Assembly (NCBI GenBank): GCA_005793345.1
Contig: SXSU01000092.1
Coordinates: forward strand, 111,316-135,315
Direction of reading: 5' to 3'
Origin: Bdellovibrionales bacterium
Lineage (GTDB): Bacteria > Bdellovibrionota > Bdellovibrionia > Bdellovibrionales > Bdellovibrionaceae
DNA: 24,000 nt
Within the stretch, counting starts at the first letter, position 1, and every line of letters begins with the position of its first letter. The notes beneath the pieces were generated by a model that did no database searches, was not told the DNA's origin, and saw only the letters and a program-made list of their open reading frames with translations. A program made the position numbers and the translations under genes. Below, one piece after another: positions 4,261-23,083 of the stretch.

Positions 4261-5697
4261 TTATTGTATAAGATCGTCAAATGAGATTATTTTATAGAAA
4301 TAATTGTTAATTATTTCTTCATCTTCAATATAGATTGTACCTTGGTAGATTAATATAGGCTTTAATGCAGATCTTTTTGGTATCGCAATCGCATCAATTT
4401 TTTGTTTTACTTCTTTTATAATTTCTTTTGTTATTATTTTTTTACATTTTATTTCACAAAGATAAAAGATATCTAATTTTGTATGTATCAACAAATCGAT
4501 TGCGCATCCTTTTTTGAATCGAGAGTTTTTCTTCTGGATATAGGGAGCTGATGAGTTTAGTTCGGTTTCTTTAATTTCGAGAACTTTATGAATTAAATCT
4601 TTATTTGCTAATATTAAGTTTTCAAACTGGTATCCAAGAATTTGTTCTATATTTTTTACTTCATTGAGATCATTAAATTTAATACCACCTTTTTCAATTT
4701 TACCTTTGAGAGGTTCAATTATTTTGAGGTAAAATCGAGTGTAGTTATCTTTTACGCGAATATGGCTTGATTTCATAACTTGGGATGTATCAGTTTTAAA
4801 ATAAAAATCTCTGCTAATAAATCCTGAAATTTCTAAAATATGTAGTGCCTCAGTAAGATCGCTATTGTGATCTATTTTTAGTTTTTTTGCTAAAGAGTTA
4901 GGAGTCAGTTTTTCGTCTAAACATAATCTAATAATTTTTTCCAAACCTTGTGATCTTCTTCTAAAAATATCTCTAAAAATTTTATCAAAATCTCTATATA
5001 GTATTCCTCCTTTATCAAAACAAATTTGAGCTAAACTTTTAGTGGATGCTTTTGATTTAACTATTTCTTCGAGGTATTTAGGAACTCCTCCTGTTATTGA
5101 TAAGGTAAGCATTTTTTCTAACGAACCCATATGAAAATTATTTTTGACCCAAAATTCATTGATTTCAGTTAATGAGAGCTCTTGTAAGTTAATATCAAGA
5201 GAGACTCGTCCTAAAAAATCAGTATTGTTTAAAATATTTTTTTCAATCCAAGCAGAAACTGATCCGCAGACTACAAGAATAAGTTGAGGGTTCTTTTTAA
5301 ATTTAGTATCCCATGCGGATTTTAATTTTGCAGCAAACAGTTTATCGCCGTTTCCTAGCCAAGAAATTTCATCTAGAAATATTAACCACTCTTTTTTATT
5401 TGTTAATTTTGCAAGGTAATCAAAAGCTTCATCCCAGTCACTTAATTTGGGCTGGGGAATTTTAAATTGTTCAGCTAATGAAATTGCAAAGTGTTGGAGT
5501 TGATCTTTAGCTGTCGATTCAGTTTCAGGCCCCAAACCTTGCACTTCAAAAAAATTCGAAAAAGATTTTGACCATTCTTCTATTAATGAACTTTTCCCAA
5601 TTCGTCTTCTGCCGAGCAGACAGACAAAACTAGCTGTTTTTTTATATTTTAAGTTATTTAATTGATTGAATTCAGTTTTTCTTCCAATAAATGACAT
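4261..5697 (-). CDS. AAA-type ATPase of the ATPase_2 (PF01637) + DUF234 architecture with a C-terminal PD-(D/E)xK-like motif (478 aa)
   Basis: Start moved to the internal ATG at 5697 (MSFIGRKTEFNQL, the usual N-terminus for this family) with GGGGAG just upstream. Walker A is LLGRRRIGKSSL and Walker B is LIFLDEISW. DUF234-like motifs are RFYLKIIEP and GYQFENLI. The C-terminal AIDLLI...LCEIKCK fits D...E-x-K. Confidence 0.8.
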   Translation of the reverse strand: MSFIGRKTEFNQLNNLKYKKTASFVCLLGRRRIGKSSLIEEWSKSFSNFFEVQGLGPETESTAKDQLQHFAISLAEQFKIPQPKLSDWDEAFDYLAKLTNKKEWLIFLDEISWLGNGDKLFAAKLKSAWDTKFKKNPQLILVVCGSVSAWIEKNILNNTDFLGRVSLDINLQELSLTEINEFWVKNNFHMGSLEKMLTLSITGGVPKYLEEIVKSKASTKSLAQICFDKGGILYRDFDKIFRDIFRRRSQGLEKIIRLCLDEKLTPNSLAKKLKIDHNSDLTEALHILEISGFISRDFYFKTDTSQVMKSSHIRVKDNYTRFYLKIIEPLKGKIEKGGIKFNDLNEVKNIEQILGYQFENLILANKDLIHKVLEIKETELNSSAPYIQKKNSRFKKGCAIDLLIHTKLDIFYLCEIKCKKIITKEIIKEVKQKIDAIAIPKRSALKPILIYQGTIYIEDEEIINNYFYKIISFDDLIQ

Positions 5698-5825
5698 AAA
5701 CTCCCCGCCAATACTACAAATGTACATTTAGCGGGTATATTTTGTCAATATACAAACTCCCCGCCAAATGTGCATTTATAGTATTAGCGGGGAGTTTATT
5801 ATTAATACAAACTCCCCGCCAAATG
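5694..5825. repeat. GC-rich repeat array in the tolR / ATPase intergenic region
   Basis: ATACAAACTCCCCGCCAAATG is perfectly repeated at 5750-5770 and 5805-5825. A 14-nt partial copy, AAACTCCCCGCCAA, lies at 5698-5711 and overlaps the ATPase ribosome-binding site. Inverted copies are GCGGGGAGTTT at 5787-5797 and a partial TTAGCGGG at 5728-5735. The arms 5754-5764 and 5787-5797 can form an 11-bp stem. Palindromes are AAATGTACATTT (5718-5729, perfect) and AAATGTGCATTT (5766-5777). Confidence 0.75.
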
Positions 5826-15474: not shown

Positions 15475-16800
15475 ATGTATAAATTAATTTTAGCTTCACA
15501 ATCCCCACGCCGAAAAAAAATTTTAACAGAAGCAGGGTACTTATATAAAGATCTCCCTGTTAACTTATCGGAAACTCCTGATAAAAACCTAAATCTGGAC
15601 GAACAAATAATTAAGATCGCACGCGAAAAAGCAGAAGCTTGTCTAGAGTCAAATAACTATTTGAAAAATCAAAGTTATTTAATATTAGCATCAGATACTA
15701 TGGTTATTGTTGATGGAGTAATGTTGGGTAAACCAATTGATAAAAATGAAGCTAAAAAATTTTTGCGACTTTTATCTGGTCGAGATCACTTTGTTAAAAC
15801 TTCTGTTTTTGTTTTAAATTGTCAAACTTTAGAACACATAGAGGGAATAGACACAACAAAAGTATTTTTTAAAAATTTAACAGATAACGAAATAAATTCC
15901 TATGTTGAAAGTGGAGAACCAATGGATAAGGCAGGAGCCTATGGAATTCAATCTTTGGGTGGAACATTTGTAGATTACATCGATGGCTCAATGAATACTG
16001 TTGTAGGTTTGCCATTAATTTTATTTGAAAATTTACTAAAAAAAAATAATTGGTCCATTGAAGAAACAGAGTCTTCCGATAATTTAGTTCAAGAAAATTT
16101 TTTAAAATTTAAAAATATTTTTGAAGCTGAATTATTAAGAAATAATCAGATGAAAATAGGATCATTAACAAAAGCAAAGTTATTGGCAGTTTCTAAAACA
16201 CATCCACTTTCAAAAATAAAATCTGTTTATAAAAAAGGCCAAAGACTTTTTGGCGAAAATTATGTACAAGAAGCGAACTTAAAAGTTGAAGAAGCTCGAT
16301 CAGAACACTTAGACATTGAGTGGCATTTTATCGGTAAACTTCAGCGAAATAAAGTAAAAGATGTTATTGGTCGTTTTGCTTTAATACATTCGGTTGATAA
16401 TTTAGATTTGGCAAAAAAAGTTTCATCAATTGCTGAGCAAAAACAACTTAATCAAAAGTGTCTTCTTCAGTTAAATATCGGAAGTGAAGATACAAAATCT
16501 GGTTTTTCTCCAGTGGAACTTTTAAGTTGTATGTCAGAGCTTATAAAGTTACCGAATGTCACTTGGCAAGGTGTAATGTCTATGCCACCATTAACTGAAG
16601 ACGAACAAAAAGTTCGTGGATTTTTAAGACAAACAAAGGATGTTTTTGAAAAAATAAAATCAAATTTACCTAAAGAATTTATTTCTGAATGGAAACATAT
16701 ATCAATGGGTACCACTCATGATTTTAAAATTGCTCTTCAAGAAGGATCTACATTTATTCGAGTTGGAACTGCAATATTCGGAGAAAGAGAATACACGTGA
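15475..16800 (+). CDS. maf-yggS: Maf nucleotide pyrophosphatase fused to a YggS-family PLP-binding protein (441 aa)
   Basis: Maf motifs in aa 1-190: LILASQSPRRKKIL, ASDTMV, DKAGAYGIQ. YggS motifs in aa ~225-441: LLAVSKTHP (PLP lysine), FGENYVQE, WHFIGKLQRNK, SMGTTHDF, FIRVGTAIFGER. This is a single uninterrupted ORF. Confidence 0.85.
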   Translation: MYKLILASQSPRRKKILTEAGYLYKDLPVNLSETPDKNLNLDEQIIKIAREKAEACLESNNYLKNQSYLILASDTMVIVDGVMLGKPIDKNEAKKFLRLLSGRDHFVKTSVFVLNCQTLEHIEGIDTTKVFFKNLTDNEINSYVESGEPMDKAGAYGIQSLGGTFVDYIDGSMNTVVGLPLILFENLLKKNNWSIEETESSDNLVQENFLKFKNIFEAELLRNNQMKIGSLTKAKLLAVSKTHPLSKIKSVYKKGQRLFGENYVQEANLKVEEARSEHLDIEWHFIGKLQRNKVKDVIGRFALIHSVDNLDLAKKVSSIAEQKQLNQKCLLQLNIGSEDTKSGFSPVELLSCMSELIKLPNVTWQGVMSMPPLTEDEQKVRGFLRQTKDVFEKIKSNLPKEFISEWKHISMGTTHDFKIALQEGSTFIRVGTAIFGEREYT

Positions 16801-17639
16801 GTTTAAGTCATATCATTCAAAATCCAAATCATAAGATTGGTTTTTTAGGTGCAGGAAACATGACAACTGTTTTTTTGCGTAGATTAATAGAGTCAAATAC
16901 TCTAACACCAAAACAAATTATGGTGAGTAATCGTACTGATGGTAAATTACAAAAACTAAAGTCAACTTACGATATTTTAATAGCAAACACAAATGAGCAA
17001 CTTGTTGATGAGTGTGATGTTGTAATTATTGCTGTAAAACCACAAGATTTTAATGAAGCTTTAGAGCCAATTGCATCATCTTTTAAACCCGATCAAATAG
17101 TAATTAGTTTAGCTGCGGGTTTAGCATTAAATTCACTTTATAAAATAGTGCCCAATGTAAGATGGGCCAGAGTCATGCCTAATACTCCTTCAAGAATCGG
17201 CCATGGGGTTATTGGATTGTGCACGCGTGATAAAAAAGATGTGGGGCTTGAAGAGTATATTAAATCTTTATTAGCTTCTCTTGGAACAATTATTTCTGTT
17301 GAGAGTGAAGAAGATTTTAATACAATTATGATTTCATCCTCATCAGGCACTGGTTTTGTTTTTGAGTTGATGAGTTATTGGCAAGAGTGGATTGAAGAAC
17401 GTGGGTTTACGGCTGAAGAGGCTCGTCAAATCACAGTTGAAACTTTTTTCGGAGCATCGCTATTAGCACAACAAAGTCCAAATATTTCATTTGTTGAATT
17501 AGTTTCAGCCGTAGCTTCTAAAAAAGGAGTCACTGCCGCAGGTTTGGATTCGATGAGAGAAACAGAAGTAGAGAGAGCCCTACGCATAAGTTTTGAAAAA
17601 GCTTGGATTCGCAATCAAGAGATTGCGAAATTAGTTTAA
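16797..17639 (+). CDS. proC: pyrroline-5-carboxylate reductase
   Basis: The GTG start overlaps the upstream TGA (GTGA). Rossmann motif KIGFLGAGNM, then VIIAVKPQD, RVMPNTP and the C-terminal ASKKGVTAAGL, all typical of ProC. Length is 280 aa. Confidence 0.9.
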   Translation: MSLSHIIQNPNHKIGFLGAGNMTTVFLRRLIESNTLTPKQIMVSNRTDGKLQKLKSTYDILIANTNEQLVDECDVVIIAVKPQDFNEALEPIASSFKPDQIVISLAAGLALNSLYKIVPNVRWARVMPNTPSRIGHGVIGLCTRDKKDVGLEEYIKSLLASLGTIISVESEEDFNTIMISSSSGTGFVFELMSYWQEWIEERGFTAEEARQITVETFFGASLLAQQSPNISFVELVSAVASKKGVTAAGLDSMRETEVERALRISFEKAWIRNQEIAKLV

Positions 17640-17650
17640 ATAATTGCTCC

Positions 17651-17781
17651 CTGCTCAATAATCCCCTCAATTATTAAAGCTGTGCATTTTTTTAAAGTAA
17701 AATGGAGTTGACTCCGAATTACTTTAAAGTAAAATGGAGTTGACTCCGAATTACTTTGTACTTTGACTCTAAACAAAAGGT
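17651..17781. repeat. direct repeat copy A (131 bp) containing a 32-bp tandem duplication of a palindromic module
   Basis: Once one 32-bp unit is removed, copy A matches copy B (18560-18658) at 97 of 99 positions. The module AAAGTAAAATGGAGTTGACTCCGAATTACTTT occurs at 17694-17725 and 17726-17757. Outer arms are AAAGTAA/TTACTTT and inner arms are GGAG/CTCC. Confidence 0.85.
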
Positions 17782-18081
17782 GGAATTGCCCAGATTACGC
17801 CTGAGACTCTAAAAGCATTGCAAGATCCTAATGGTGAGGTTAAAGATTTCATTTTTAGAAATATTCGGAAGAAAGATTTGAAAAATCCAAATATTGCAAT
17901 TCCTTTGGCCATTAGATGGCTATCACGTAAAAAAAGATTAGCAGAAGGAAAGCTGGGTAGAGCTGCAACTGCGGAGGAAATTATTTTGGAATATAAAGGG
18001 CTTCTAAAAAGCAAAAGTGAATTTAAAAACAACGCTGTCGAAAAATTTAGAGAAGAATATGGCAAGCTTACAGCGAAATAA
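17773..18081 (+). pseudogene. 5'-truncated lytic-transglycosylase (SLT)-like gene fragment
   Basis: The frame is open from the TAA at 17770-17772, which lies inside repeat copy A. It reads TKGGIAQITPETLKALQDPNGE...NIAIPLAIRWL. GIAQITPET resembles the SLT motif G-L-M-Q-I/V-x-P-x-T. The catalytic Glu-Ser region expected upstream is absent. The only available start is a TTG at 17818. Confidence 0.4.
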
Positions 18082-18586
18082 GCATTCGATCATTTTCGTA
18101 TTTTATTTATTTTTGCAAGGTTGTACTACAAGCTCATTTTATAACGTTGGTAAACCAAATGCATCAGGAACAGAAATAAAAGTTAGTCCAGATAGAATTA
18201 TCACAGAGTGTGAATTTATTACTGATTATGATGGAGATCAAAAAAGTCCTTATGGTTTTATGATACACATTTTAGACTTACAAAATACCGTGATCACCGT
18301 CAGCAATGGAGTAGTCCTTGAAAAAGAATATTGCTTTGAAAGACAGGTGGCAGTAGATAAGATTATTAAAAATGCCCAATCAGTTATAGTAAGTGGACGA
18401 GGAAATGCTGAAGCCCCGATTGTTAAGGGGGAGTTTAAACACACCTTTAAAAGACATGGCACTTATTATGGTAACGGTCGTAGTCTTAATTTTTTAGCTA
18501 TTTGGAATAATAGAGAAGATTGTTATAGTGGATTTAACGGTGAAGACGATCCTTGTCTGCTGCTCAATAATCCCCTCAATTATTAA
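18059..18586 (+). CDS. putative lipoprotein (175 aa)
   Basis: Track ORF trimmed to ATG 18059, giving MASLQRNKHSIIFVFYLFLQGC, a signal peptide with a lipobox-like LQGC. Five Cys in the mature part. The last 8 codons plus the stop lie inside repeat copy B. Confidence 0.55.
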   Translation: MASLQRNKHSIIFVFYLFLQGCTTSSFYNVGKPNASGTEIKVSPDRIITECEFITDYDGDQKSPYGFMIHILDLQNTVITVSNGVVLEKEYCFERQVAVDKIIKNAQSVIVSGRGNAEAPIVKGEFKHTFKRHGTYYGNGRSLNFLAIWNNREDCYSGFNGEDDPCLLLNNPLNY

Positions 18587-18658
18587 AGCTGTGCATTTTT
18601 TAAAAGTAAATTGGAGTTGACTCCGAATTACTTTGTACTTTGACTCTAAACAAAAGGT
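18560..18658. repeat. direct repeat copy B (99 bp) with one palindromic 32-bp module
   Basis: CTGCTCAATAATCCCCTCAATTATTAAAGCTGTGCA...GGAGTTGACTCCGAATTACTTTGTACTTTGACTCTAAACAAAAGGT. There are two substitutions relative to copy A. It ends 6 nt before the ATPase ATG at 18665. Confidence 0.85.
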
Positions 18659-18664
18659 TAGTTT

Positions 18665-19810
18665 ATGGCTTCGAAAACTAAACTCAAAGAACGTTTATAT
18701 GCATCCTACATACTTAAAGATCTTGGAAAAAAAATGGTTTTTTTAGGTGGCCCACGTCAAGTAGGTAAAACAACACTGGCAACAGAGTTTCTAAAAAAAT
18801 ATTATGATGGGCATCCTGCATATTTGAACTGGGATAATGAAATATCAAGAAAGAAAATATTAAAGTCTGAATGGTCAAAAGATGAACCCCTAATTATCTT
18901 TGATGAAATTCATAAAAAAAAAGGGTGGCAAAGTTTTATAAAAGGGATTTGGGATGTCTGGAAGAATACTCAAAAATTTCTAATTACTGGTTCGGCACGA
19001 TTAGATATTTTTCGTAAAGGAGGCGATTCAATGTTGGGTCGCTACCATTACTATAGATTACATCCATATTCACTTCCAGAACTTGGATATAGTGAAAAAA
19101 ATTTAACTCTCCTATTTAAATTCGGAGGTTTTCCTGAGCCATTAATAGAACAAGATGAAGTTGAGTTAAGAAGATGGCACCTTCAAAGAGTTGCAAAATT
19201 AGTAAGAATTGATTTAAGAGATTTAGAGTCAATAACTGATTTAGATAAAGTTGAAATTCTAGCTGATACTTTACCTTCAAGAGTGGGGAGTGGGTTGTCT
19301 TATAAATCATTGGCAGAAGATTTAGAAGTGTCAGATAAAACAGTAAAGCATTGGGTGCAGATGCTTGAAAACTTATATTATTGTTATTTGATACCTCCGT
19401 TTGGCTCTCCCAAAATAAAAGCTATAAAAAAAACTTCCAAATTATATTTGTGGGATTGGTCGCAGGTTGAAAATCCAGGATTTAGATTTGAGAATATGGT
19501 CGCCTCGCATCTCTTGAAGCTTTGTGATTTTTGGCAAGATGTTTTAGGTTATAAAGCAGAGCTTCGTTACATCAGAGATGAAACAGGTAAAGAATGTGAT
19601 TTTGTCGTGATTAAAGATCGTAAACCAATATTTGCCGTTGAATGTAAGTTGAGTGATACCGATGTTTCACCGTCTTTGATTTTTTTTAAATCAAAGTTAG
19701 ATATTCCAATGTGGTATCAAGTTCACTTGAATGGAAAAAAAAGAATTATTGAACCAAATTTTAAAATTTTATCCTTTGATGAGTTCTGCAAAGAAATCAA
19801 AGCAATCTGA
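18665..19810 (+). CDS. AAA_14 / DUF4143-type ATPase (COG1373-like) with a C-terminal PD-(D/E)xK motif (381 aa)
   Basis: Walker A is LGGPRQVGKTTL and Walker B is LIIFDEIHK. Also present are GSARLD...LGRYHYYRLHPYSLPE and FENMVASHLLK. The C-terminal ECDFVV...FAVECKLSD gives D312...E326-x-K328. Confidence 0.85.
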   Translation: MASKTKLKERLYASYILKDLGKKMVFLGGPRQVGKTTLATEFLKKYYDGHPAYLNWDNEISRKKILKSEWSKDEPLIIFDEIHKKKGWQSFIKGIWDVWKNTQKFLITGSARLDIFRKGGDSMLGRYHYYRLHPYSLPELGYSEKNLTLLFKFGGFPEPLIEQDEVELRRWHLQRVAKLVRIDLRDLESITDLDKVEILADTLPSRVGSGLSYKSLAEDLEVSDKTVKHWVQMLENLYYCYLIPPFGSPKIKAIKKTSKLYLWDWSQVENPGFRFENMVASHLLKLCDFWQDVLGYKAELRYIRDETGKECDFVVIKDRKPIFAVECKLSDTDVSPSLIFFKSKLDIPMWYQVHLNGKKRIIEPNFKILSFDEFCKEIKAI

Positions 19811-19859
19811 TAATTAATTCCTTGTAACATATGTCGGATTTAAGGTATAATTCCGATAT

Positions 19860-21008
19860 ATGATACAGCGAATATGTAATTTATCGAATTCACATAGCTT
19901 TTTCTTGTTTGGACCGCGAGGTGTTGGCAAAACTACCTTTCTTGAACATTGGGCTAAGGGGCAAAATGTTTTTTACGTTGATTTGCTTGACCCTGAAATT
20001 TCACATCGTTACTCCTTAAGACCTCAATTGTTGATTTCTGATTGGGAAGTGAAAAAAGCTGAATGGATCATTGTTGATGAAATTCAAAAAATACCTGAAC
20101 TGCTTGATGTTGTTCAAAAACAAATGCGAAAAAAAAATGTATACTTTGCTTTAACAGGGTCCAGTGCTCGAAAACTTCGAAGAGGCGCTTCTAACTTGTT
20201 AGGAGGGAGAGCTTTTGAATTTCATTTCCATCCGTTAACTCATATTGAATTAGGATCATCTTTCAATCTTTTAGAAGCTTTGAAGTGGGGAACCTTACCC
20301 TATATTGGTGAGCTATCTGATGCAAATAAAGTTAGAAGTTTATACTCGTATGTTTCTACTTACTTAAAAGAAGAAATTTTAGTTGAGCAGATAGTTCGAA
20401 AAATTGAACCTTTTCGAAGATTTTTAGAAGTGGCAGCACAGATGAACGGAAAAATTTTAAATTATGCAAAAATAGCAAGAGACTCAGGAGTTGAAGAAAG
20501 AAGCGTTGCTCGATATTTTCAAATCTTAGACGATACATTAGTAGGGTTTCACTTGTATCCATTTGAAAAGTCATTGAGAAAGCAGCAATCTCAAAAAGCA
20601 AAATTTTATTTTTTTGATACAGGTGTAACTCGTGCTTTGCAAAATAAAATCACCTTAGATCTAAACACTATGACAAAAGATTATGGTGATTATTTTGAGC
20701 AGTTTCTTGTATTAGAATTTTTTAGGTTAAATGATTACTATGAAAAGCATTTTGAATTTTCGTACTTTCGATCAAATGATAGTCTCGAGGTAGATTTGAT
20801 TGTTAAGCGTCCTGGGAAACCTGAAATTCTCATAGAAATAAAATCACATGATTATTTTAATGAAGAGGATTCAAAGAATTTAGAGATAATTTCAAAAAAT
20901 TTCCTAAACCCTGAAATGTATGTTTTATCTAATTGTAAAAAGCCTACTAATGTTCGAGGTGTTCAATTTATTCATTGGCAAGATGGGATTAAAAATATTT
21001 TTGCGTAA
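19860..21008 (+). CDS. AAA_14 / DUF4143-type ATPase paralog with a C-terminal PD-(D/E)xK motif (382 aa)
   Basis: Walker A is LFGPRGVGKTTF and Walker B is WIIVDEIQK. Also present is GSSARKL...LGGRAFEFHFHPLTHIE. The C-terminal motif is EVDLIV...ILIEIKSHD. It lies 49 nt downstream of the first paralog on the same strand. Confidence 0.85.
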   Translation: MIQRICNLSNSHSFFLFGPRGVGKTTFLEHWAKGQNVFYVDLLDPEISHRYSLRPQLLISDWEVKKAEWIIVDEIQKIPELLDVVQKQMRKKNVYFALTGSSARKLRRGASNLLGGRAFEFHFHPLTHIELGSSFNLLEALKWGTLPYIGELSDANKVRSLYSYVSTYLKEEILVEQIVRKIEPFRRFLEVAAQMNGKILNYAKIARDSGVEERSVARYFQILDDTLVGFHLYPFEKSLRKQQSQKAKFYFFDTGVTRALQNKITLDLNTMTKDYGDYFEQFLVLEFFRLNDYYEKHFEFSYFRSNDSLEVDLIVKRPGKPEILIEIKSHDYFNEEDSKNLEIISKNFLNPEMYVLSNCKKPTNVRGVQFIHWQDGIKNIFA

Positions 21009-21135
21009 AATTTGTCATTAAGAGTAAAAAGCTAGACTTTTGATTTAAAAAATTTAGTTTTAAAATTTAGTTTTAAATTATATCCTTAACTAAAAATTAA
21101 CTTGGGTTTGAAAATACTTTTGCCGAATAAAAAGT

Positions 21136-22425
21136 ATGTTTAAAAATGTTAAAGTATCAGAAGATAATATAAAATACTTAAGATGGTTATATGTAATTAG
21201 CTTAATAACTTTTGCTATTTATATTTTAAAATATAATTTTATATATCATTTGTATGAATATAACTTGGTAATTCTCCCTACATTTTTAATTATATTTTTA
21301 TGTGGTCCACTTTATTATTTTACAAAAAATAACAAATTAGCATCTATTATTATTTTTGTATTATCAACTTTTCTTGTCTCTTTTTTTATTTATACAGCAG
21401 GAGGAATGAATGCTCCTGGAATATTTTGGGTTTGTATTTATCCATTTGTAGGAGGACTTCTTTTTGGTTTGATAGGAAGTATTTATGGTGGTGTAACAAT
21501 GATTATAAGTTATTTTATATTCATACTTTTAGATTATTATAAATTAATTCCCTATCATCAAGCAATCCAAGCTGAGTTTGAAAATGAAAAAGTAACAAAT
21601 ATTTATACTTTCTCAATTGTAATGATTATAACAACTTTTTATTTTTTAAAAAATGAATGGAATACTCAAGAATCATTAAAAGAACATCAAAAAGAAATTG
21701 AAGTATTATTTAAATTATTAATGCACGATGTGGCAACTCCAGTTACAGCAATTCAAGGAGCCGTTAACTTTATAAATAATAAAGGAATCGAAACCGAAAT
21801 TACCAAAAAATATTTTGGAACAATCGAAAGATGTTCTCAGATAATTATTAATATTTTATCACAAGCAAGAAGTATGACTGCTTTATCTGATGGTAAAATT
21901 CAGTTTAAAGGTGAGGCAACAAATTTAAATGAACTTTTAATTAGTTCTGTTGAGTTTGTTAAAATTAGAGCTGAAAGTAAAAAGATAAATTTTATTTTAA
22001 AATTAGATCCTAAAGAACCAACTATCTTTATTGATCAGAGTTTATTTAAGTTGGCGATTCTTTCAAATCTTTTGACAAATGCAATTAAATTTTCTTCTGC
22101 AAATTCTGAAATTATTATAAGTTCATTATTAGATAATAATAATGTCATAATTGAAATTAAAGATCATGGGATTGGAATACCTAAGGAAATATTAACTAAA
22201 TTGTTTGATGTAAAAGGCAAAACGACTCGGGCGGGAACTCAAGGCGAGTTAGGTACTGGATATGGTATGCCAATAATGAAATCCTTTGTTGAAAAATTTA
22301 ATGGAAGAGTTGAAATAGAATCCGTTGTTGCAACTGAAGAAAATAAAAGTAGTGGTTCAACTTTTAGGTTAATATTTCCTATTTATGTTGCTCGAAAAGC
22401 TTTTAAAAGCTTGGCTAAGGTCTAG
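21136..22425 (+). CDS. sensor histidine kinase with a polytopic (about 6 TM) N-terminal domain (429 aa)
   Basis: H-box is LLMHDVATPVTAIQG (His197). N-box is LLTNAIKFS. G1 is IKDHGIGIP and G2 is GTGYGMPI. The N-terminal 175 aa are almost entirely hydrophobic helices. No response regulator is adjacent. Confidence 0.85.
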   Translation: MFKNVKVSEDNIKYLRWLYVISLITFAIYILKYNFIYHLYEYNLVILPTFLIIFLCGPLYYFTKNNKLASIIIFVLSTFLVSFFIYTAGGMNAPGIFWVCIYPFVGGLLFGLIGSIYGGVTMIISYFIFILLDYYKLIPYHQAIQAEFENEKVTNIYTFSIVMIITTFYFLKNEWNTQESLKEHQKEIEVLFKLLMHDVATPVTAIQGAVNFINNKGIETEITKKYFGTIERCSQIIINILSQARSMTALSDGKIQFKGEATNLNELLISSVEFVKIRAESKKINFILKLDPKEPTIFIDQSLFKLAILSNLLTNAIKFSSANSEIIISSLLDNNNVIIEIKDHGIGIPKEILTKLFDVKGKTTRAGTQGELGTGYGMPIMKSFVEKFNGRVEIESVVATEENKSSGSTFRLIFPIYVARKAFKSLAKV

Positions 22426-22450
22426 TTTCCAAATGTAAAGAACTTAAATC

Positions 22451-22480
22451 TTGATAGTCATCCAGGTCTTTTGTCATAAT
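22451..22480 (+). promoter_or_regulatory. sigma-70-like promoter candidate upstream of divIVA
   Basis: TTGATA (22451-22456), an 18-nt spacer, then CATAAT (22475-22480). GGAG lies at 22508-22511, 8 nt before the ATG at 22520. Confidence 0.35.
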
Positions 22481-22519
22481 TTGGGGAGATCAAAATTACC
22501 TCAGAGCGGAGTTTAGTTT

Positions 22520-23083
22520 ATGAAAGTAACCCCCGTTGATATTGCACATAAGAAGTTTAATAAAAGTTTTATGGGTTTTAATCAAGATGAAGTTTCACAA
22601 TTCTTATCGGAAGTATCACATCAGCTTGAAGAGTTAATAAAGGAACGATCTCAATTAAAAGATCTTGTGCGTGAAAAAGATTTAGCGTTAATTGAATATA
22701 AAGAACGAGATCAAATTTTAAAGACTACAATTACAAATGCATCACAAATGGTTGAGCGGATGCGTGAAGATAGTGAGAAGCAAGTGCAATTGATGATAGG
22801 TGAAGCAAGATTAAAAGCTAATGAGATTGAAAGAGACGCTCACCAAAATCTTAAAAATATATATAATGAAATTAATCGATTAAAGAAGTTAAGATTACAA
22901 TATGAAGCAAATATGAAGGCTATGGCTCATGCACATTTGTCACTACTCGAAGAAGGACAAAAGCACTTAGGGTTTCCGACTTTAAACTCATCAGAAGAAG
23001 CAAGCTTAAATGAACTTGCAGAAGAAAGTAATTTTAATAATGTAGTAACAGGAATTTCTCCTCTTTCTGTAGATATGATTTAG
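22520..23083 (+). CDS. divIVA: DivIVA-family cell-division / polarity protein (187 aa)
   Basis: The N-terminus MKVTPVDIAHKKFNKSFMGFNQDEVSQFLSEV matches the DivIVA lipid-binding domain signature (lTp.di..k.F....rGY...EVd.FL). The rest is coiled-coil-like. Confidence 0.85.
   Translation: MKVTPVDIAHKKFNKSFMGFNQDEVSQFLSEVSHQLEELIKERSQLKDLVREKDLALIEYKERDQILKTTITNASQMVERMREDSEKQVQLMIGEARLKANEIERDAHQNLKNIYNEINRLKKLRLQYEANMKAMAHAHLSLLEEGQKHLGFPTLNSSEEASLNELAEESNFNNVVTGISPLSVDMI

Follow-up and report, generated by a model that had tools for sequence, protein, structure and literature searches.

A direct repeat beside an AAA_14-DUF4143 ATPase gene of a Bdellovibrionales bacterium as a probable second copy of the control region of that gene

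The window analysed here, a stretch of 24,000 nucleotides (nt) from an uncultured Bdellovibrionales bacterium with affinity to Pseudobdellovibrionaceae (contig SXSU01000092.1), carries in this order a fused Maf-YggS gene, proC, a block of inserted genes and divIVA. Within the block two direct repeats, designated copy A and copy B, stand on either side of a truncated SLT-domain gene and an intact lipoprotein gene, and behind copy B follow two ATPase genes and a histidine kinase gene (Table 1). The origin and the function of this repeat are the subject of the present analysis, according to which the repeat is probably the control region of the first ATPase gene (ATPase 1) together with the end of the lipoprotein gene, copied 0.9 kb upstream, while the same short module stands in front of related ATPase genes.

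Both ATPases of the window match the PDC-S01 hidden Markov models and possess the AAA-PD-(D/E)XK architecture, as candidate defence genes; the DUF4143 domain is classed as a PD-(D/E)XK fold (PMC3424549). PDC-S01, an ATPase fused to a PD-(D/E)XK nuclease, is reported to be the fourth most common candidate defence system in prokaryotes with about 29,500 bacterial and 10,000 archaeal instances, and the validation of its anti-phage role is pending (PMC12988326). No description of the control of PDC-S01 genes was found in the searchable literature or in Rfam.

Anatomy of the two repeat copies

The copies are identical at 97 of 99 positions, on which sequence reading, repeat finder and pairwise alignment agree, and they differ by substitutions at 18602 and 18611 and by one 32-nt indel, the extra unit being present in copy A. 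In both of them the first 27 nt are the final 8 codons and the stop of the lipoprotein open reading frame (ORF). The tails of the closest lipoprotein homologs (..DPCLLLKHLNK and ..DPCLKLNKPLN) resemble that of the window in protein and DNA alignment, and for this reason the tail is considered a genuine gene end; in copy A it is an orphan. A gap of 11 nt separates the proC stop codon (17637-17639) from copy A, and the frame of the truncated SLT gene opens at the base right after the end of copy A; copy B ends 6 nt short of the ATG of ATPase 1 at 18665. The preliminary description of this DNA, made from its letters alone, had already reported two copies of about 100 bp, the orphan lipoprotein 3' end, the coincidence of the copy A end with the break of the SLT gene and the position of copy B next to the ATPase start. 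All these points were borne out, the orphan end by the identical 27 nt and the homologous tails in relatives, and the break by DNA homology to intact SLT-lipoprotein cassettes, which begins at 17782. The leader behind the last module (17758-17781 and 18635-18658) also holds TTTGACTCTAAA, which is similar to the module centre GTTGACTCCGAA and may be a degenerate remnant of a further module.

Table 1. Features of the proC-divIVA region of the window (positions count from the first letter of the window; strand in brackets)
Feature	Position (strand)	Description
proC (pyrroline-5-carboxylate reductase)	16797-17639 (+)	Pfam F420_oxidored and P5CR_dimer; left anchor of the block
Inserted block, 4.9 kb	17640-22519 (+)	Repeat A, SLT fragment, lipoprotein, repeat B, ATPase 1, ATPase 2, histidine kinase; recognised by synteny comparison of L009-L029
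Repeat copy A, 131 nt	17651-17781 (+)	Orphan lipoprotein 3' end, 16-nt spacer, two modules, 24-nt leader with Shine-Dalgarno (SD)-like AAAAGG
Orphan lipoprotein gene end (last 8 codons and stop)	17651-17677 (+)	Equal to 18560-18586; tail homologous to those of the closest lipoprotein relatives
Modules A1 and A2	17694-17725 and 17726-17757 (+)	Tandem pair; conserved ancestral form of the putative ATPase 1 promoter-operator
Predicted composite sigma-70 promoter	17708-17735 (+)	-35 TTGACT 17708-17713 (A1 centre), 16-nt spacer, -10 TAAAAT 17730-17735 (A2 left arm)
Junction-centred dyad CTCCGAATTACTTT/AAAGTAAAATGGAG	17712-17739	Putative operator between -35 and -10; homologous to the family palindrome TCCAnTTTACTCA/TGAGTAAAnTGGA
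5'-truncated SLT-domain gene	17782-18081 (+)	C-terminal ~100 of 222 codons; catalytic 'ALIASES' region missing
Lipoprotein gene, intact, 175 aa	18059-18586 (+)	Lipobox LQGC; no Pfam family; all family-invariant residues present
Repeat copy B, 99 nt	18560-18658 (+)	Lipoprotein 3' end, spacer, one module, SD leader; directly 5' of ATPase 1
Module B	18603-18634 (+)	Single, derived state (one 32-nt unit lost); without composite promoter and junction dyad
ATPase 1	18665-19810 (+)	AAA_14, helix-turn-helix (HTH), DUF4143 (PD-(D/E)XK fold); PADLOC PDC-S01 E = 6e-44; AAA+ fold
ATPase 2 palindrome ATATGTCGGA..TATAAT..TCCGATAT	19829-19859 (+)	Predicted -10 at 19846-19851 ends 8 nt before the ATG; no SD
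ATPase 2	19860-21008 (+)	Divergent AAA_14 and DUF4143 (Pfam); PADLOC PDC-S01 E = 1.5e-52
Membrane histidine kinase	21136-22425 (+)	Pfam HisKA and HATPase_c; last gene of the block
divIVA	22520-23083 (+)	Pfam DivIVA and synteny; right anchor of the block

The contig of the window was assembled by MEGAHIT from a metagenome, and misjoins typically occur at repeats; nevertheless it is hardly credible that the duplication arose in the assembly as a chimera of strain variants. With 99 and 131 nt both copies remain below the k of 141, which we take from the k141_ of the contig name to be the final MEGAHIT k, and the two substitutions and the indel tell the copies apart. A separate Logan assembly (L002) is interrupted exactly 30 nt short of the right repeat end, the place expected of a true branch at the k of 31 that Logan presumably uses, and a second long contig shows the same neighbours. 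No sister strain was found in the collections, where the best matches were 57% for proC (among the GTDB species genomes), 79% for ATPase 1 and 76% for the lipoprotein.

The 32-nt module in front of related ATPase genes

The 32-nt module, AAAGTAAA(A/T)TGGAGTTGACTCCGAATTACTTT, is present exactly three times in the 24 kb, twice in tandem in copy A and once in copy B, while none is expected from 100 shuffles. Two adjacent modules are predicted to form jointly a sigma-70-type promoter, with a dyad of 26-28 bp lying between its boxes and centred on the module junction. The TTGACT-N16-TAAAAT arrangement of copy A matches the consensus at 10 of 12 positions in the promoter scan, and transcription from it would start near 17742. 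The same scan returns no site at module B, and reading of copy B 16-18 nt past its TTGACT (18617-18622) gives TTTGAC, TTGACT or TGACTC, none of them -10-like.

ATPase 1 has more than 100 clusters of relatives at 67-79% identity, and eight independent orthologs (72-79% identity) in differing gene neighbourhoods were compared. Tandem modules lie directly 5' of seven of them, two modules in L047, L049, L051, L052, L131 and L133 and three in L053, and the eighth, L132, has one complete and one degenerate module. The modules of L051-L053 show no mismatch to GTAAAATGnnnTTGACTCCGAAnTACTT, and the parts conserved through the orthologs are GTAAAATG, TTGACTCCGA and TACTT. The TTGACT-16 nt-TAAAAT arrangement is identical in all seven multi-module orthologs and in copy A and is missing in copy B. 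Because the orthologs carry tandem modules, the two-module form is regarded as the conserved state, which copy A keeps and from which copy B lost a unit; the preliminary description, in which the indel was read as a duplication gained by copy A, had the polarity reversed. In L053, an ortholog of 72% identity, three perfect tandem modules are found at 2895-2990 instead of two, which indicates that the module number varies by slippage in both directions.

The module is a unit of a gene-linked cis-regulatory region of ATPase 1, with two units as the norm of the subfamily and occasionally three, and the intergenic part of the repeat belongs to ATPase 1, being linked to the gene and not to the place. 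Among the explanations that had been offered earlier for the repeat, a duplicated 5' leader or operator of the ATPase is thus the one supported, by the tandem modules directly 5' of non-syntenic ATPase 1 orthologs.

A wider comparison included 80 metagenomic loci with homologs at 48-76% identity, whose start codons were determined, and 75 homologs at 47-76% identity were set against 196 control ORFs from the same contigs. The family-level statements given here refer to homologs of at least 47% identity and to a few anecdotal distant cases (ATPase 2, the ATPase at 4261-5727, the L132 paralogs and a Rhabdochlamydia plasmid gene). Most family loci possess a 32-nt-periodic element, the core of which is the zero-spacer palindrome TCCAnTTTACTCA/TGAGTAAAnTGGA; its centre lies 27 nt from the downstream start codon, or 16 nt from it in an intermediate group. 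Behind the palindrome comes a TATAAT-like box, the end of which is 6-9 nt away from the ATG or GTG, and an SD sequence is absent. A palindrome matching at 11 or more of 13 positions within 90 nt upstream was found in 41 of 75 homologs versus 5 of 196 controls, and a strong -10 box at a distance of 6-9 nt from the start codon in 32/75 versus 2/196, while SD-like motifs were rarer in the homologs (12/75) than in the controls (55/196). An in-frame stop is present inside the motif, and independent gene callers agreed on the start codons.

Leaderless genes are marked, according to published work, by a TANNNT box about 12 bp 5' of the start codon (PMC3160421; for M. tuberculosis, PMC3898074). The -10 position and the absence of an SD in the homologs agree with this, and most family members probably have a leaderless mRNA. 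In contrast to a genome-wide trait of one phylum, the signature here tracks one gene family across Proteobacteria, Bdellovibrionota and Thermodesulfobacteriota. The leaderless layout fits the family at large and ATPase 2 but not the ATPase 1 subfamily, which has a short SD-containing leader. The intermediate group (L054-L059) bridges the two architectures, sharing the TTGACT centre with the window and the CATGAG junction with the majority. The taxa concerned are Bdellovibrionota/Oligoflexia, Burkholderiales with Bradyrhizobium, and Thermodesulfobacteriota. One protein cluster at 90% identity (L096/L108, 85 members) contains metagenome-assembled genomes labelled Bradyrhizobium and Burkholderiales, which suggests either a recent transfer between proteobacterial classes or a binning error.

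The nhmmer profile of the region gave 83 matches (E < 0.01) in 1.09 Mb, on both strands as the site is palindromic, and all of them except copy A lie at 5' ends of ATPase homologs; the weight of this count is reduced by the fact that the recovered loci are for the most part those used to build the profile, with 13 matched loci outside the building set. Since all other matches are at ATPase 5' ends, the module is gene-linked and copy A is its single displaced instance. These data bear directly on the suggestion that the module is a dispersed palindrome of the repetitive extragenic palindromic (REP) or bacterial interspersed mosaic element (BIME) kind without a specific gene link, an outcome that the preliminary description had named as fatal to its own reading. 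The module does share with REP/BIME a short, imperfect, hairpin-capable intergenic palindrome in several copies, but it keeps a fixed register with the start codon of one gene family, encloses promoter hexamers, and has arms that change together with the linked protein. In the window and a 6-kb extension it is confined to the two repeat copies, and homologous instances in the 1.09 Mb precede ATPase homologs. An exact scan of the Joint Genome Institute (JGI) metagenome contigs with the 20-mer module core returned 0 matches, and the exact core version of the window is thereby absent outside this organism in that collection. A REP-like nature of the module is accordingly given almost no credence.

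The dyad of the family overlaps the predicted promoter and shows compensatory change. All 13 pairs were found changed on both sides, and 71 doubly changed cells were counted versus 20 +/- 3.8 after shuffling, a value not reached in any of 500 shuffles. The cells are paired in 84% of cases versus 33-40% in slid-partner controls, where it must be considered that many rows of the alignment were picked by palindrome search, which inflates the percentage paired but not the compensatory changes between classes. Arm mismatches are symmetric without strand bias (18 G.T versus 18 A.C), and at most loci the dyad lies 5' of the inferred transcription start; on both grounds a DNA operator fits better than an RNA hairpin.

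Action of the module as RNA, either as a terminator of the lipoprotein gene or as a leader hairpin or attenuator of ATPase translation, is accordingly judged unlikely, although several observations speak for it. The hairpin is significantly stable (-9.1 kcal/mol for the A modules and -11.9 kcal/mol for B, z = -3.9 and -5.1), the copy B substitution strengthens the stem, a terminator scan flags all three copies, module B would lie inside the mRNA if transcription starts at copy A, and the hairpin of ATPase 2 adjoins its start codon. Against this, the inner GGAG/CTCC stem is not kept in the orthologs, most of which have GACC..CTCC; the stem is only 5-6 bp long with no U-tract behind it (tail ATTACTTTGT), which is not the form of a Rho-independent terminator; and the position of the module tracks the downstream ATPase and not any upstream gene. 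Besides the symmetric mismatches and the position of the dyad, the Rfam search at gathering thresholds, with the window and 17 loci, gave nothing.

Upstream repeats and palindromes were also observed at more distant ATPase genes. A homolog of ATPase 2 on L069 (minus strand) has a layout like that of ATPase 2 with other arms (ACTCCAT..TAAATT..ATGGAGT directly followed by ATG). In the window a third AAA ATPase gene (ATPase_2/AAA_14, 488 aa, 4261-5727, minus strand) has repeats of its own at 5694-5825, where three direct copies of TTTGGCGGGGAGTTT spaced 55-56 nt are accompanied by an inverted copy, through which a 40-nt, 90%-complementary inverted repeat arises; the last TTTGGCGGGGAGTTT copy adjoins the likely true start of the gene at 5696 (MSFIGRK...). 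Four AAA_14/DUF4143-type genes are clustered at 1731-6471 of L132, three of them with differing upstream repeats or palindromes: GACTATTTTCGTGTTAnTCGCGAA occurs twice before the gene at 1731, and none was seen before the 211-aa gene at 5174. The plasmid of Candidatus Rhabdochlamydia oedothoracis (L134) encodes a 39% homolog with a similar layout of two repeats and a -10 box; at 1449-1500 it has TGCAAAATAGTC and TGCATAATAGTC 33 nt apart, and TGCATAATAGTC stands 4 nt before an ATG that lies 48 nt 5' of the annotated start and matches the N-terminus of the family, so that the annotated start is probably too far downstream. The homolog on Thermus HB8 pTT27 has no clear layout of this kind.

Origin of the second copy

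In 16 of the 20 informative relatives of the synteny comparison about 35-215 bp separate proC from the divIVA gene behind it, and in three others (L009, L019, L026) other, unrelated genes lie between the two; the segment 17640-22519 is therefore an insertion into an insertion-tolerant gap. To the left of it a 441-aa ORF (15475-16800) combines Maf (nucleotide pyrophosphatase) with YggS (PLP-binding, Ala_racemase_N), and this fusion or adjacency is kept in most relatives.

The SLT-lipoprotein pair is a small cassette, often accompanied by a BrnA/CopG-like gene of about 83 aa and an HTH_3 gene, which occurs at many unrelated sites in Bdellovibrionota and is frequently truncated. The lipoprotein gene and the SLT fragment have 23 nt in common, an overlap that intact cassettes show as well. 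With the intact cassettes (L003, L004, L005; 72-82% identity) the window shares DNA homology over 17782-18561 only: this homology begins at the first base past copy A and stops in the lipoprotein tail, and the 72-nt intergenic part of the repeat was not found downstream of the SLT-lipoprotein cassette elsewhere. The intact 222-aa SLT protein gave no relatives among viral contigs, and the cassette is not obviously phage-borne. Neighbours of the cassette in L003, L004, L005 and L006-L008 include ISL3 transposase genes (L003), a Fic gene and a Peptidase_S74 tail-fibre-like gene; of the cassette itself, L006-L008 retain nothing but a lipoprotein gene truncated at its 5' end, and many of the database 'SLT' matches are C-terminal fragments of 57-58 aa.

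The lipoprotein gene runs uninterrupted into copy B and copy B into the ATPase gene, and hence the novel joints are 17781/17782 and 17650/17651. The repeat of about 99 nt is made up of the final 27 nt of the lipoprotein gene together with the promoter-operator-leader region, and a local rearrangement gave the second copy 0.9 kb upstream. This copy is joined rightward to the middle of the SLT gene and leftward to a point 11 nt past proC, and it probably retains the complete two-module promoter. Later, slippage between the perfect tandem repeats would have removed one 32-nt unit from copy B and with it the composite promoter and the junction dyad. Transcription would then proceed from near 17742 through the SLT remnant, the intact lipoprotein gene and copy B into ATPase 1, by which the lipoprotein gene may have been captured into the transcription unit of the ATPase. 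The short SD-containing leader may be an addition of the window's subfamily to the otherwise leaderless design of the family.

Two routes to this arrangement can be imagined. In the first, a tandem duplication of 17782-18658, that is of the SLT 3' part, the lipoprotein gene and the promoter, would be followed by deletion of most of the first copy. In the second, a fragment with the same content would integrate at a resident repeat in a Campbell-type or homology-facilitated event. The joint 17781/17782 fits the duplication of 17782-18658, a route that further presupposes the joint 17650/17651 and the disappearance of the first copy. The locus resembles Campbell-type and tandem-duplication scars in its repeat-segment-repeat order, in the contiguity of the segment with the right repeat and in the single truncated gene at a novel joint, and similar bracketing repeats exist at the ATPase loci L088, L091, L106 and L111; it differs from them in needing two illegitimate joints. 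Each of the routes requires two illegitimate events. Target-site duplication was rejected, as the supposed insert is in frame and contiguous with the repeat.

The preliminary description had also considered att-like duplications or cassette boundaries. In this explanation the repeats are recombination junctions of the attachment (att) type or of the integron attC type, and a recombinase acting on the palindrome inserted the 0.8-kb segment. Imperfect palindromes inside direct repeats around a discrete, gene-sized segment are indeed a property of such sites, the SLT-lipoprotein cassette does occur in many contexts, among them beside the ISL3 genes of L003, and three copies of a repeat of about 350 nt are found between gene blocks in L099. 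Pfam scans of the window ORFs of at least about 140 aa, on the other hand, detected no integrase, transposase or resolvase domain, in agreement with the earlier remark that no recombinase is visible in the window. The left repeat adjoins a gene cut in the middle of its domain and the right one begins within the lipoprotein ORF, and therefore complete cassettes are not delimited. Nor does the repeat bound a unit common to several genomes. The palindrome is conserved with the downstream promoter at ATPase 5' ends and is not found at SLT-lipoprotein cassette boundaries elsewhere, and after an insertion that duplicates its target the insert would not be expected to continue in frame into the repeat without a break. 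Recombination junctions of this kind are therefore considered very unlikely, and the copying of the ATPase 1 control region remains the preferred explanation.

The ATPase as candidate binder and the mobility of its gene

Related ATPase genes on unrelated contigs (76-89% DNA identity; L062, L068, L078, L088, L096, L108, L109 and others) share homology with a left limit at -52 to -60 and a right limit 0 to +4 nt from the stop codon. Beyond this unit of operator/promoter and ORF the flanks of non-syntenic genes share nothing, and because the shared homology includes only these parts, the ATPase is the sole protein that always travels with the operator. This protein of 380 aa is built of AAA_14, HTH and DUF4143, with the HTH between the AAA+ and DUF4143 domains. 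Each class of half-site is paired with its own signature at the start of the putative recognition helix (DHKT/SDKT, SP(N/H)T, SQPT, SHRA, AHET and SFET), while the rest of the HTH is conserved. These data suggest the dyad as the putative operator for a dimer of the ATPase's own HTH, which would result in autoregulation of a potentially toxic ATPase-nuclease. In the AlphaFold model the AAA+ and C-terminal domains are confident; the search of the ATPase sequence against PDB gave no relative, and Foldseek against PDB gave generic AAA+ proteins only (clamp loaders, Hda, RuvB, TnsC), which adds nothing on DNA binding.

Several points weigh against the proposed account. The promoter, the operator, the leaderless mRNA and the autoregulation are all predictions from sequence. 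The correlation between HTH and operator is confounded by phylogeny, since each class is a clade. The HTH region of the AlphaFold model (residues 176-260) has a predicted local distance difference test value of 31-38, and the DNA-binding module is recognised from sequence alone, by a weak Sigma70_r4_2 match and a conserved HTH-like pattern. Copy B may still function, as a weak promoter-like site was returned by the promoter scan at 18502-18529 and its single hairpin is more stable than the A hairpins. The microhomology at the junctions is weak, being TCTAAA-like at 17781/17782 and TTG near 17650/17651. Finally, the search for the module in the source genome covered about 30 kb, and copies elsewhere in the genome are possible.

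Direct repeats around ATPase genes were also found in other loci. Long imperfect direct repeats amount to 13 pairs in 400 kb of ATPase-centred loci versus 4 pairs in 633 kb of control loci, 3 of these 4 being in one locus rich in insertion sequences. Nine of the 13 pairs bracket one or more ATPase genes. Bracketing repeats occur in L082, L084, L088, L091, L099, L106, L107, L111 and L132, and in L126 and L072 both copies are upstream. The flanking repeats are 40-1062 nt long with 82-95% identity, consist of local sequence and are about five times commoner than repeats in the controls. The L091 repeats enclose the conserved unit and nothing else, from -64 to stop+5; the left copy of L111 duplicates, without its 5' part, a gene that is intact on the right; in L099 the repeat contains a gene 3' end with downstream DNA, and the last of its three copies is an orphan. 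The arrangement of L126 is similar to that of the window, with a palindrome-bearing repeat beside the ATPase and again about 0.9 kb upstream, bracketing one gene. A precise transposon-like element was considered for the sharp homology boundaries and rejected as the default explanation: the repeats of L088 take in additional flanking DNA of 72 and 111 nt, and no motif copy 3' of the genes was returned by the profile search, hence no terminal repeat of this kind.

The bracketing repeats could reflect a mode of integration, breaks at the operator or the general instability of defence islands. A more far-reaching and rather doubtful hypothesis is that PDC-S01 genes are self-contained, horizontally moving units of an operator/promoter of about 60 bp and an ORF, the protein of which recognises its own operator, and that the bracketing repeats (in the window, L082, L084, L088, L091, L099, L106, L107, L111, L126 and L132) are footprints of their entry. 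Such footprints might be left by circular intermediates that integrate through the host DNA they carry, or by nuclease breaks at the operator that are repaired with duplication. If this were true, the repeat of the window would have its origin in the biology of the ATPase system itself and would not be a scar left by chance.

Among known systems, the C-protein/C-box circuits of type II restriction-modification (PMC2632904, PMC2175313) likewise have paired palindromic operators directly 5' of the regulator's own gene, frequent leaderless translation, a fixed short distance between site and start, a potentially toxic nuclease under control and horizontal mobility of the whole unit. The differences are that the presumed regulator here is an HTH within an AAA+ ATPase-nuclease and not a small Xre-type protein, that the half-site here, AGTAAAnTGGA, departs from the C-box consensus, and that a clear TATAAT-like -10 is present here and absent in C-protein promoters. 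By analogy the element appears to work like a C-protein/C-box circuit, without being a member of that family. In archaea the gene of Orc1/Cdc6, an AAA+ protein with a winged helix, adjoins repeated dyads that its protein binds. Unlike those origin boxes, the elements described here contain promoter hexamers and abut the start codon, and an origin role is without support.

In summary, what appeared to be a recombination site can be recast as a duplicated promoter-operator, the gene-proximal copy of which has decayed, with a foreign lipoprotein gene now standing between the ATPase and its putative promoter. The comparison of related genes defines a minimal transferable unit, from -60 to the stop codon. 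The conserved, gene-linked dyad in the promoter predicts tight autoregulation of a likely toxic enzyme in the style of restriction-modification controllers, and the dyad operator would thus provide a concrete and cheap experimental handle on PDC-S01.

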